A DNA stretch of 64,000 nt from Escherichia coli (GTDB taxonomy: Bacteria; Pseudomonadota; Gammaproteobacteria; Enterobacterales; Enterobacteriaceae). The stretch lies in the NCBI RefSeq assembly GCF_001677475.2, contig NZ_CP015229.1. One strand, 5' to 3'. A program made the translations under genes and the position numbers. Position 1 is the first letter of the stretch. Each line of letters starts with the position of its first letter. Below the pieces are notes generated by a model. It had not been told where the DNA came from. It saw only the letters and a list, made by a program, of their open reading frames with translations, and made no database searches. This document shows, in pieces, positions 21,467 to 24,115 of the stretch.

Positions 21467-21469
21467 AAA

Positions 21470-21673
21470 TCAGTTAATCCCCGTTTGCACCGAAAGAATA
21501 TGCTGCAAACTTTCTACCATTATGCGCCCCGATTGAAATAAGCCTTCCTGGATTTCATTGTTAACATTCACAGCGTGAACCAGGGAGGCTAATAACACCA
21601 CTTGCAAGAAGGCAAAAATAAACGCACCGATAATCATAATATGCGTCAGGGGGATTTTCCTTTGCTCCTTCAT
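21470..21673 (-). CDS. Small hydrophobic membrane protein (67 aa), hypothetical
   Basis: One predicted TM helix (IMIIGAFIFAFLQVVLLASLV); start overlaps the upstream lipoprotein gene stop (ATGA); stop lies 3 nt from the convergent cueR stop. Confidence 0.45.
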   Translation of the reverse strand: MKEQRKIPLTHIMIIGAFIFAFLQVVLLASLVHAVNVNNEIQEGLFQSGRIMVESLQHILSVQTGIN

Positions 21674-22092
21674 TTTAAATAACCCACAAACTGACCTTCC
21701 TTCATTAAGGCGACTTTTCCCGTGTGGTGATAAACAATGACGTTATAAAGACCTGACTGATAAACAGTGGCATCTTTATTGTCTTCATCAATTGCACATA
21801 ATGAATCATTGAGATAAGCAAAGTTCTTACTGCTCATTCTAAAGGTCATGCCAAATCCTTTATAAATGGCTTTCTTTGCCGCCTGGGCATGTTGTGCGGC
21901 TTCTGCATTTTTAAATGCCTGCGCCTCGGATGCACTTAAAATAGCCGTCTGACGCTGTTGTTCTGCGAGATAACAGGTGTCATGGCTGACGCCCTGCGCC
22001 TGGCAATCTGCGATGCGGGAAGTGGGTGAACTACAGCCAGCCAGTAATATAACCGCCAGCAGGGAAAACGATTTAATGGAACTATTCATCAT
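21670..22092 (-). CDS. Putative lipoprotein (140 aa), hypothetical
   Basis: Signal peptide with lipobox LLAGC; co-directional with and downstream of the YadA-anchor gene. Confidence 0.6.
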   Translation of the reverse strand: MMNSSIKSFSLLAVILLAGCSSPTSRIADCQAQGVSHDTCYLAEQQRQTAILSASEAQAFKNAEAAQHAQAAKKAIYKGFGMTFRMSSKNFAYLNDSLCAIDEDNKDATVYQSGLYNVIVYHHTGKVALMKEGQFVGYLK

Positions 22093-22177
22093 TGTTAACC
22101 TTAAATAATGTACAAATTAATGAAGAGGTGAAACCCGGCAAGCTTCCTTGCTCTTATTTATATTGAGGATTGGAATA

Positions 22178-23194
22178 TTAGAAAGAATATCCCACGCCGA
22201 CACCCGCGCCGAAATCAGATTGCGTATCCGCAGAGACACCGGCTTTAATCACGGTATGCGTTCCGGCATTAAAAGATGTTCCTACAGACACCGCAGATTC
22301 ACCGTTGAACGTTCCCGCTCCCGCTGACACCATCATCAAGTCACCGGTTTTCACCTGTGGTTGTGAGGCGATAGCGATGGCAGATGCAGTTCCCGCATTG
22401 GCTTCTTTACGATTGTCCTCAACTTCGTTTTTCAGAGAATCGAAATGGTTATTGAGCGTGTTAATTTGTTGGCTGTTATCTGCGACCCGTTTTTGCGTGT
22501 TGGTTAACTGTTGCTGCGTTTGTGCGGAATCTTGTCTCAGACTTTCAATTTGCTCATGTGCCTGGACAGACTTCTGCGCCAGACTTTGCATTTGTTTATC
22601 GTATTGAGCCCTTTCTTTTTGCTGTTGTGCTGCCACATCGGTTGTCAGTGCATTCATTTTCTGCCCTTGTTCCGTGGTAGTGCGCTGAATAGCCTCATTT
22701 TGAGCCGCCAGTCTGGCATTAATCATCTCCTGATAATGCGCAGTATTTTGCGTATCTCCAGTCGCGGCGAGCGTTTTTTGTGTGGCTACGATCTGCGCCT
22801 GTTGCTCTGTAATTTGCGTTTGCTGGGCATCAGTTACCGCAGACTGTCGGGCGTTGATCATGCTCTGATAACGGGCTGGTGTCTGTGCATCACCTGTAGC
22901 GGCAACGGTTTTTTGTCCTGCGTCAGGATCTGTCTGGACAGTGGGAGTCTGAGTGGTATCAGGTGTTTCAGAAGGGATGTAGTGATGTTCAGTCAAATAG
23001 GTATACGCAGCGGGGCTGTTGTCTGTGCGTTCTAAAAAGCGGGTAATCTTCTGCTCAATCTCCGATTGCGACATGCCAGAGTTAATGGCTGAAAGCTCTG
23101 TTGCCGCCGCTTCAATGGTATCACCAGCTAAAACAACAGGGCTGGATGTTGCTGAAATTATGAGTGCCAGTAAAGCTACGTTTACAGTTTTCAT
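22178..23194 (-). CDS. Short trimeric-autotransporter-like protein with YadA-type C-terminal membrane anchor and Q-rich coiled-coil stalk, no recognisable head domain
   Basis: 338 aa; N-terminal signal peptide; last ~75 aa (AGTASAIAIASQPQVKTGDLMMVSAGAGTFNGESAVSVGTSFNAGTHTVIKAGVSADTQSDFGAGVGVGYSF) fit the YadA anchor pattern (G/A-rich entry helix, four beta strands, terminal aromatic); internal ~45-aa duplication in the stalk. Confidence 0.7.
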   Translation of the reverse strand: MKTVNVALLALIISATSSPVVLAGDTIEAAATELSAINSGMSQSEIEQKITRFLERTDNSPAAYTYLTEHHYIPSETPDTTQTPTVQTDPDAGQKTVAATGDAQTPARYQSMINARQSAVTDAQQTQITEQQAQIVATQKTLAATGDTQNTAHYQEMINARLAAQNEAIQRTTTEQGQKMNALTTDVAAQQQKERAQYDKQMQSLAQKSVQAHEQIESLRQDSAQTQQQLTNTQKRVADNSQQINTLNNHFDSLKNEVEDNRKEANAGTASAIAIASQPQVKTGDLMMVSAGAGTFNGESAVSVGTSFNAGTHTVIKAGVSADTQSDFGAGVGVGYSF

Positions 23195-23357
23195 TCATTT
23201 TCTCTTGTTCAAAATAAGTCGCACTAATGTTTCTATAAGAAACAAATAATATTATTTTAAGAAATAAACTACGTTGCAATTTAATCGAAATTTACGCCGC
23301 CATTTGTGTGATGTAAAGCGCATTTTTGTCTGGTGTAAGCGTAAACACCATCAATAA

Positions 23358-23382
23358 GAAACAAAAATGGTTTCTTATATAA
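23358..23382. promoter_or_regulatory. Perfect inverted repeat ATAAGAAAC-N7-GTTTCTTAT in the divergent promoter region; candidate operator
   Basis: Read directly from sequence; a partial copy TAAGAAACAAA occurs near 23236. Confidence 0.35.
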
Positions 23383-23560
23383 ATAAAAAAGGAAATCATT
23401 TCGTGCTCTTTCAATGTAAAAAAGAGTAAAGGCTTGTTTTGATAAGCGAAATAAATTCTGTTTCTGGACTAAACGTGAACCGGTTCCTGATGTGTGTTAA
23501 AATGCGTTTCTTTGATAAATCTCAATTTTTAAGAGGTTTACGCCAGGCAGGAAAATTTAA

Positions 23561-23923
23561 ATGAATGAATTTGAGAAGATTTTTAATGAAATGAATCTGG
23601 ACCGGGCATTGCTACCGATCCTTTTTCGTTCGAACCGGTCAACAGTGTGGAAATATTTAAGTGGCGATAGTACGGCTCCTGCCTCAGCTATGTCACTGAT
23701 TATGCTGTTGCAGTTAATCCAGAAACGAAACCCCGATCTGTTAGCCGAATGGTTAACGCTTTCTGATTTCACCATTCCGCCAGAAGTTTACCTGGACCAG
23801 CCTGATTACTGGAAAGGGTGGGTGTATACGCAACACAAGGTCAATAAAAACGTCCTGGAATATCTAAAAAAACATTATCCGGATGAAGACCAAAAAAACA
23901 TGAATAAAGGTAGTGACGAGTAA
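23561..23923 (+). CDS. Hypothetical protein (120 aa), possible small DNA-binding regulator
   Basis: ORF divergent from the YadA-anchor gene across a 366-bp AT-rich spacer; no confident family assignment from sequence alone. Confidence 0.4.
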   Translation: MNEFEKIFNEMNLDRALLPILFRSNRSTVWKYLSGDSTAPASAMSLIMLLQLIQKRNPDLLAEWLTLSDFTIPPEVYLDQPDYWKGWVYTQHKVNKNVLEYLKKHYPDEDQKNMNKGSDE

Positions 23924-23949
23924 TTTGCCAATGCCAGTTAATATAGCGG

Positions 23950-24115
23950 AGGCGGCCTACGATTCGGGCGCAGACTTCCAGGCATGATAAGACGCGTCAG
24001 CGTCGCATCAGGCGTCGGTGCATAACCGCCGGATGCGGCGTAAACGCCTTATCCGGCCTACGATTCGGGCATATTTTGTAGGCATGAAAAGACGCATCAG
24101 CGTCGCATCAGGCGA
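23950..24115. repeat. REP/BIME cluster (three REP units)
   Basis: Classic REP motif GCCGGATGCGGCGTAAACGCCTTATCCGGCCTAC flanked by two GCATGAnAAGACGCnTCAGCGTCGCATCAGGC units. Confidence 0.8.

Follow-up and report, generated by a model that had tools for sequence, protein, structure and literature searches.

Trimeric (type Vc) autotransporter adhesins (TAAs) such as YadA, Hia and AtaA are built from a signal peptide, a stalk that runs into a membrane anchor of one helix and four strands, and a terminal aromatic residue. Short coiled-coil members of the class in Escherichia coli include Saa and the prophage-borne Eib proteins, which vary in length through repeat modules. Only two helpers, SadB and TpgA, have been described, each a small envelope protein encoded in one operon with its TAA, and a 2026 survey of TAA neighbours added none. 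In the O157:H7 strain EDL933, O-island 29 (OI-29) is a 2,643-bp segment with the genes z0638, z0639 (gmrA) and z0640 (PMC5826968), and GmrA is regarded as a transcription factor for the flagellar gene fliA. Here we analyse a 64,000-nucleotide stretch of E. coli contig NZ_CP015229.1 (the window), in which an insert between cueR and ybbJ is OI-29, and its gmrA, encoding 338 amino acids (aa), looks like the gene of a short type Vc autotransporter, predicted from its sequence to form an outer-membrane trimer displayed at the cell surface. We consider it probable that OI-29 is a four-gene cassette in which such an autotransporter is accompanied by candidate partner genes; for the reported GmrA phenotype, an indirect route through the envelope fits this architecture better than direct promoter binding.

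As a discovery the island is ordinary, being already catalogued and studied; the main point for follow-up is the mismatch between the published function of GmrA and the architecture of an autotransporter. If the architectural reading is true, the mechanism of a published virulence-related regulator needs revisiting, an uncharacterised surface fibre is present in a quarter of complete E. coli genomes (including enterohaemorrhagic, avian pathogenic, neonatal meningitis-associated and uropathogenic lineages), and the co-inherited lipoprotein and small membrane protein are candidate new partner proteins of type Vc systems.

Identity, boundaries and distribution of the insert

In K-12/C600 the stop codons of cueR and ybbJ, on opposite strands, abut with a spacer of 0, and the limits of the insert are thus exactly 21467–24107 (2,641 bp; open reading frame (ORF) list and K-12/C600 comparison). 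An earlier sequence-only reading of this DNA had given the adjacency in K-12 correctly and had placed the insert to the base. It had further described an AT-rich accessory segment absent from K-12, which is borne out: the GC content is 0.439 in the insert, 0.542 in the whole window and 0.306 in the divergent intergenic region, falling from about 0.58 in the flanks to 0.32–0.50 within the insert. Four ORFs lie inside, of 67, 140 and 338 aa on the minus strand and of 120 aa in the divergent orientation; the first two, a small membrane protein and a lipoprotein, share their strand with the 338-aa gene in an apparent operon, in agreement with the co-orientation noted before.

The insert has the locus (cueR–ybbJ), four ORFs and gene order of OI-29 and differs by only 2 bp in size. 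It is also S-loop 43 of strain Sakai, in which ECs0548 was named 'Saa-like protein' (Ogura 2007, PMC2323221). Protein identities to the O157 copies are 94% for the autotransporter, 99% for the lipoprotein, 98.5% for the 67-aa protein and 97% for the 120-aa protein, a predicted helix–turn–helix (HTH) protein; the window copy is nevertheless an allelic variant, with its best DNA matches (97.7–98%) in non-O157 strains. Primers published for Lambda-Red deletion, cloning and tagging (PMC5826968) match with 0 mismatches at and around the 338-aa coding sequence (gmrA), the lipoprotein gene (z0638) and the 120-aa ORF (z0640). The gmrA deletion arms bracket exactly the 338-aa YadA coding sequence, those of z0638 bracket the lipoprotein gene and the z0640 arm abuts the 120-aa ORF. 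Because the gmrA primers map onto the 338-aa coding sequence, the 'headless YadA-anchor protein' of the sequence-only reading and the published GmrA are products of one gene. The reading was right that K-12 lacks the island. The island itself had already been studied as OI-29; when the literature was searched for the 338-aa autotransporter under other names or in earlier studies, only Ogura 2007 and the GmrA papers came up.

By megablast, at least 80% of the insert region was found in 1,348 of 5,426 complete E. coli genomes, O157:H7 included, and some genomes hold partial islands only. Gene order in the matching genomes is identical, with the RefSeq labels YadA family autotransporter adhesin, lipoprotein and two hypothetical proteins. 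To the right of the insert, the core genes share 95–99% identity with all complete E. coli genomes (best 98.7%), which identifies the window as E. coli.

A probable short trimeric autotransporter

A profile search of the 338-aa protein for Pfam YadA_anchor (PF03895), which the sequence-only reading had named as a check, matched residues 279–338 over the full model (positions 1–60 of 60; E=1.3e-11), the sole significant Pfam family in the protein. Residues 244–337 align with anchor structures known for AtaA, Hia and YadA (9vnj, 2gr7, 3emo, 2lme), and a search against sequences in the PDB returned no match outside the anchor. The NCBIfam Vomp autotransporter C-terminus also matches, as does a PHROG prophage 'adhesin' family (residues 107–338, E=2.4e-22). 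The protein terminates in ...GVGYSF, and homologues terminate in F or W.

At the other end, a heuristic test recognises a Sec signal peptide, MKTVNVALLALIISATSSPVVLA followed by GD, with a basic N-terminus, a hydrophobic core (KD15 maximum 2.1) and V-x-A at −3/−1 (VLA↓GD); this peptide is kept in all alleles compared. It is followed by a conserved N-terminal domain of about 50 aa (residues 24–75), also recognisable in the 633-aa homologue from Pseudocitrobacter, then by a Pro/Thr linker and a Q/A/T-rich stalk. A coiled-coil check, likewise proposed earlier, found a single heptad register at residues 190–275, with an a/d score of up to 0.75 against 0.60 at the 99th percentile of shuffles. The signal peptide, coiled-coil stalk and YadA-type anchor described by the sequence-only reading are thus all supported.

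Its statement that there is no head domain holds in part. No TAA head, neck or stalk family was found in the 338-aa protein even at E≤10 (Pfam), and precomputed Pfam assignments of 120 homologues list PF03895 only; 'headless', however, should be taken as lacking a recognised head module only, because a small conserved N-terminal tip domain is present. Judged on its sequence, the protein shows every sequence-testable property of a trimeric autotransporter except a canonical head.

The protein shares the signal peptide, the stalk leading into the anchor and the terminal aromatic residue with YadA, Hia and AtaA, and differs from them in lacking the YadA head, neck and stalk Pfam motifs and the extended signal peptide region, and in its short passenger, which spans about 255 aa and includes a Pro/Thr linker and a small N-terminal domain that is novel. 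In being a short coiled-coil E. coli protein with length polymorphism through repeat modules it resembles Saa and Eib, as the 'Saa-like' label of Ogura 2007 implies; unlike theirs, its gene is chromosomal and lies on neither a prophage nor a plasmid. No solved Eib structure was among the PDB sequence matches at E≤1.

E. coli, E. marmotae, E. ruysiae and the cryptic Escherichia clades have homologues, under the names 'YadA-like family protein' or 'adhesin'. Their alleles form a length series of 330–580 aa through gain and loss of whole stalk modules, including a QKTVAATGD..YQSMI(D/N)AR unit present in 1–3 copies, whereas the N-terminal domain, the last ~120 residues of the stalk and the anchor are kept, the anchor being nearly invariant.

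As a separate observation on this gene, its first 75 codons (225 nt, 22970–23194) are identical to the O157 allele, and synonymous divergence (dS) in the rest of the gene is 0.15–0.19. Either the gene is a recombination mosaic or its 5′ segment is under unusual constraint.

A lipoprotein and a small membrane protein accompany the autotransporter

In the 140-aa protein the lipobox reads LLAG↓C. Position +2 is Ser or Thr in nearly all homologues and Val in one; here it is Ser, from which outer-membrane targeting is predicted. A Cys30/Cys40 pair is conserved in the family. Searches gave no significant Pfam family and no PDB sequence match; the predicted model consists of a polar helix followed by a confident small β domain. 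The family is narrow: it has 152 representatives in a set of 1.84 billion proteins and 55 clusters at 90% identity, every named one of which is from Enterobacteriaceae. Its C-terminal β domain is also repeated 5–8 times in proteins of 870–1,990 aa (P0299, P0323, P0325, P0329, P0334 and P0337), and may be a more general extracytoplasmic module.

The 67-aa protein has a basic N-terminus (MKEQRK) and one hydrophobic segment at about residues 12–33 (Kyte–Doolittle maximum 2.76). It is predicted to lie in the inner membrane with its N-terminus inside and its C-terminal ~34 aa in the periplasm, and matches no Pfam, PHROG, PADLOC or NCBIfam family.

Like SadB and TpgA, the lipoprotein is a small envelope protein encoded in an apparent operon with a TAA, and it shares with SadB an N-terminal polar helix followed by a β domain. 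It differs from SadB in having Ser rather than Asp (the inner-membrane retention signal) at +2, in being encoded downstream rather than upstream of the TAA and in the company of the 67-aa membrane protein; and its family, unlike SadB and TpgA, also occurs without a TAA. We rejected the lipoprotein as a SadB-like helper, as it lacks a PDB sequence match and its β domain matches generic small barrels, not SadB/YajI; it is at most a SadB analogue and not a member of the SadB family. The 2026 survey required a YadA head domain, and the short-autotransporter family would thus have escaped it.

The grouping recurs outside this locus. In Pseudocitrobacter faecalis (L003), genes for the HTH protein, autotransporter, lipoprotein and small protein occur together beside a large serine recombinase gene. 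A metagenomic enterobacterium (L005 4138–6671, L006) carries the whole four-gene cassette between fetA and qmcA, at a distance of two genes from the E. coli site; the module has moved as a unit within the same neighbourhood. Homologues of the 67-aa protein (43–47% identity) are encoded 3′ of the lipoprotein gene in both, and the 4-bp overlap (ATGA) between the stop of the lipoprotein gene and the start of the small gene is kept in both. Enterobacter asburiae has the autotransporter–lipoprotein pair. The P. faecalis cassette (L003 3766–5532) contains, in addition, a 588-aa ORF without a Pfam match between the 633-aa autotransporter and the lipoprotein.

Against the O157 alleles, ratios of nonsynonymous to synonymous divergence (dN/dS) are lowest for the lipoprotein (0.02), followed by the 67-aa gene (0.04), the HTH gene (0.08) and the autotransporter (0.24); dS is 0.12–0.18 for the four genes, and nonsynonymous change is concentrated in the stalk. 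Given this purifying selection, all four ORFs are real genes. An origin in a defence system or phage was rejected: for the autotransporter PADLOC returned coiled-coil noise only, and the remaining three proteins had no PADLOC match. Among the island proteins, PHROGs matched the autotransporter only, through the prophage 'adhesin' families.

A predicted HTH protein and the divergent intergenic region

The sequence-only reading had recorded the divergent 120-aa ORF, which is present, and had missed its predicted role as an HTH regulator. The predicted structure is a confident all-helical model (predicted local distance difference test (pLDDT) 83.6), from which we predict an XRE-type, lambda-repressor-like HTH regulator. 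No significant HTH_XRE profile match was found for this protein (best MqsA HTH, E=0.12, and 0.012 in one member; Xre-like-HTH, 0.047). Compared with the XRE/lambda-repressor-like regulators Aca2, Aca1, HigA2 and the C-terminal domain of MqsA, it adds a helical C-terminal region of about 50 aa; the protein has no significant Pfam match. Its narrow family comprises 21 clusters, and every named one belongs to Enterobacterales. To judge from the model, this protein would be the only credible DNA-binding candidate of the island.

A perfect 9-bp inverted repeat, ATAAGAAAC-N7-GTTTCTTAT, lies in the intergenic region at 23354–23378, with a third copy of the motif at 23235–23243, nearer the autotransporter start. 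We regard it as a candidate operator for the HTH protein, one without comparative support. Blocks that are conserved across genera are GAATCTACGCC..TGTGATGTAAAGC and GTGnTAAAAT (alignment A5). A promoter and terminator scan gave counts no higher than in shuffled sequence, and we conclude nothing from it on promoters or terminators.

The published function of GmrA and alternative explanations

Deletion of gmrA reduces fliA and fliC expression, motility and flagella and is complemented by a plasmid; a gmrA plasmid increases motility in K-12; and deletion of OI-29 leaves expression of the locus of enterocyte effacement (LEE) and of stx unchanged, while deletion of z0640 gives no motility phenotype (PMC5826968). 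Later reviews repeat the assignment of GmrA as a transcription factor, and no paper naming both 'GmrA' and 'trimeric autotransporter' was found in the searchable literature.

It is difficult to see a native cytoplasmic, sequence-specific activator in a protein that has a signal peptide, an anchor related to outer-membrane translocators of solved structure, a terminal Phe, an acidic passenger (pI 4.9), modular lengths and no significant DNA-binding domain. No significant DNA-binding domain was found in the 338-aa protein with Pfam, NCBIfam or PADLOC; the nearest is TMF_DNA_bd (residues 203–252, E=0.074), and the other weak matches, SMC, JetC and LmuB, are coiled-coil noise. What the paper took from CDD as a 'putative DNA-binding domain' is probably a false positive due to coiled coil, of the TMF_DNA_bd/SMC kind. 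Alleles that gain and lose stalk modules are what one expects of surface fibres rather than of sequence-specific regulators. On prediction, the signal peptide and outer-membrane anchor argue against a cytoplasmic location, and direct binding to the fliA promoter seems unlikely as the native activity of such a sequence, although the motility phenotype of the gmrA deletion is possibly real.

The primers bear on how the binding experiments may be read. The gmrA expression primer begins at Met1 of MKTVNVAL, which puts the His tag before the signal peptide; the annealing site of the 3xFLAG primer is the final codons, ...GVGYSF, which puts that tag directly after the terminal Phe. An N-terminal tag on a Sec signal peptide and a C-terminal tag on the signal for the β-barrel assembly machinery (BAM) are both expected to block normal targeting. 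Because the tagged constructs would be kept from the normal destination of the protein, their binding to DNA is not proof of a native activity.

We propose instead that the 338-aa protein would be exported through Sec, that three anchors would be assembled by BAM into a 12-stranded barrel and that the passenger would be shown as a short surface fibre with the N-terminal domain at its tip. The lipoprotein, predicted to lie in the outer membrane, and the 67-aa inner-membrane protein may have a periplasmic role in fibre assembly, anchoring or signalling, and the HTH protein may regulate the divergent promoters. An indirect, envelope-mediated route to motility fits the architecture of the 338-aa protein better than does direct promoter binding.

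Several results weigh against this explanation. In an electrophoretic mobility shift assay (EMSA), His6-GmrA binds the fliA promoter and not flhDC or rpoS fragments, chromatin immunoprecipitation with quantitative PCR (ChIP-qPCR) of GmrA-3xFLAG shows binding at the fliA promoter, the same motility phenotype was found in seven further strains (eight in total, complemented in trans), and deletion of OI-29 leaves adherence to HeLa and Caco-2 cells unchanged (all PMC5826968). The last is the one published test of adherence, and a role as an adhesin or as a serum-resistance factor, the latter raised by the sequence-only reading, is not supported. The heptad signal is weak at residues 100–190. The HTH assignment draws on the predicted structure only, the Pfam hits being sub-threshold, and the inverted repeat is found in E. 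coli loci only and is absent from the homologous Pseudocitrobacter and metagenomic regions. The lipoprotein resembles neither SadB nor TpgA, and a partner role for it is, as far as its sequence and context go, a suggestion of guilt by association. Of four distant homologues, three (42–48% identity) stand alone without an autotransporter (L009, L010 and L011) and the context of the fourth is cut by a contig end. We consequently rejected an obligate autotransporter–lipoprotein linkage; because distant homologues stand alone, the linkage holds only in the closer subfamily.

Two alternatives survive best, although we hold both to be doubtful. In the first, the protein is an outer-membrane autotransporter whose effect on motility is real and indirect: gain or loss of the fibre, or of its precursor within the envelope, would act through a putative envelope- or surface-sensing route on flhDC/fliA expression. 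Besides the architecture and the genetic phenotypes in several strains, this has in its favour that the complementing fragment starts 47 bp upstream of the z0640 start codon and stops where the YadA ORF ends; because it comprises only the intergenic region and the 338-aa ORF, an effect of z0640 or z0638 in trans is excluded for that construct. Cross-talk between adhesins and motility in E. coli is usually inverse, flagella being off when an adhesin is on, and the direction seen here is unusual by that measure. Soft-agar motility of K-12 is prone to selecting insertions upstream of flhDC, which could confound the K-12 result.

In the second, about as tentative, the lipoprotein and 67-aa protein are not partners at all and are neighbouring cargo of a recombination hot spot. 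The lone lipoprotein homologues, at unrelated loci, are what this predicts, as are the lack of similarity to known helpers and a cueR–ybbJ slot with at least three different alleles; deletion of z0638, too, has no motility phenotype (PMC5826968). It fits poorly with an order and ATGA overlap kept at three chromosomal sites in different genera at a protein identity of only 36–49%, with purifying selection on all these genes and with an autotransporter–lipoprotein gap of just 85 bp.

A more speculative form of our own explanation, which we think rather unlikely, is that the lipoprotein and the small inner-membrane protein form a third kind of TAA partner after SadB and TpgA and relay the state of the fibre to the flagellar regulon; such a relay from a self-contained, mobile enterobacterial module would account for the motility phenotype of GmrA without DNA binding by the autotransporter.

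We consider it very improbable that GmrA is, as published, a cytoplasmic transcription factor on the fliA promoter in which the autotransporter features are incidental, or a moonlighting protein: the binding experiments, the complemented deletion, its repetition in other strains and the gain of motility in K-12 speak for it, and the export, anchoring and tagging arguments above against. That the cassette is decaying and no longer functional in this strain can practically be dismissed, since all four ORFs are intact and under the constraint given above, and the genes are expressed in O157 at 20–96 reads per kilobase per million (RPKM) in DMEM, even though 338 aa is the shortest common allele class (longer classes have 436–580 aa), some genomes carry partial islands and a pseudogene occupies the same slot in sequence type 131 (ST131).

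Layout of the locus

Features of the insert and its flanks, with window coordinates
Feature	Position	Strand	Basis or remark
cueR, core gene, left flank	21059–21466	+	ORF and RefSeq annotation of orthologous loci; stop codon is the left boundary
67-aa single-pass membrane protein gene, last of the operon	21470–21673	−	ORF list, hydropathy
140-aa lipoprotein gene	21670–22092	−	ORF list
338-aa autotransporter gene	22178–23194	−	Pfam YadA_anchor, alignment to solved anchors
Coding segment of the YadA-type membrane anchor, residues 279–338	22181–22360	−	Pfam, solved-structure alignment
Heptad-periodic coiled-coil segment, residues 190–275, leading into the anchor	22370–22627	−	Heptad score
Divergent intergenic region, 366 bp, AT-rich	23195–23560	.	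Presumed promoters of the autotransporter operon and HTH gene
120-aa ORF, predicted HTH protein	23561–23923	+	ORF list, predicted structure
REP/BIME repeats, right boundary	23953–24114	.	Repeat search, Rfam
ybbJ, core gene, right flank	24108–24566	−	ORF and RefSeq annotation; stop codon is the right boundary

The absence of an integrase and of flanking inverted repeats, remarked on in the sequence-only reading, stands: there is no integrase in the insert and no tRNA as a mobile-element signature, and direct or inverted flanking repeats do not rise above chance (14–17-mers; the best, 17 nt at 82%, is regarded as chance). Two copies of a repetitive extragenic palindromic (REP) sequence/bacterial interspersed mosaic element (BIME) do lie about 100 bp apart, at the right end of the insert only, the last of them entering the ybbJ stop codon. 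Hits to this segment account for the megablast median of 27 matching places per genome; the Rfam family naRNA4 (RF02564) matches at 23981–24058 on the minus strand (74.4 bits against a gathering score of 59.5).

Neighbouring features of the slot

The cueR–ybbJ slot exists in at least three states and behaves like a hot spot of recombination. In E. coli ST131 (L008 1668–2496) a third allele consists of a 679-nt frameshifted minus-strand pseudogene and a REP element, and has only REP-proximal sequence in common with OI-29.

Upstream of cueR, a 5,905-aa ORF extends past the start of the window (region 7–21062); its RefSeq orthologue is 'BapA-related adhesin SiiEA'. Downstream of this giant ORF lie genes for a type I secretion ABC transporter (17728–19890) and an HlyD adaptor (19887–21062), the stop codon of the latter overlapping the cueR start. 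Of the HlyD gene, K-12 retains just a frameshifted remnant of 98 nt ahead of cueR, and for this neighbouring SiiEA island K-12 is thus a deletion derivative.

At the other side, the last ~27 nt of ybbJ (24108–24140 compared with L007 1668–1700) differ between K-12 and island-bearing or ST131 genomes at every synonymous site and in 2–3 residues, the protein ending in ...IRAVSS* in K-12 and in ...IRAVIA* in the others, which places the recombination breakpoint inside ybbJ and not at its stop codon.

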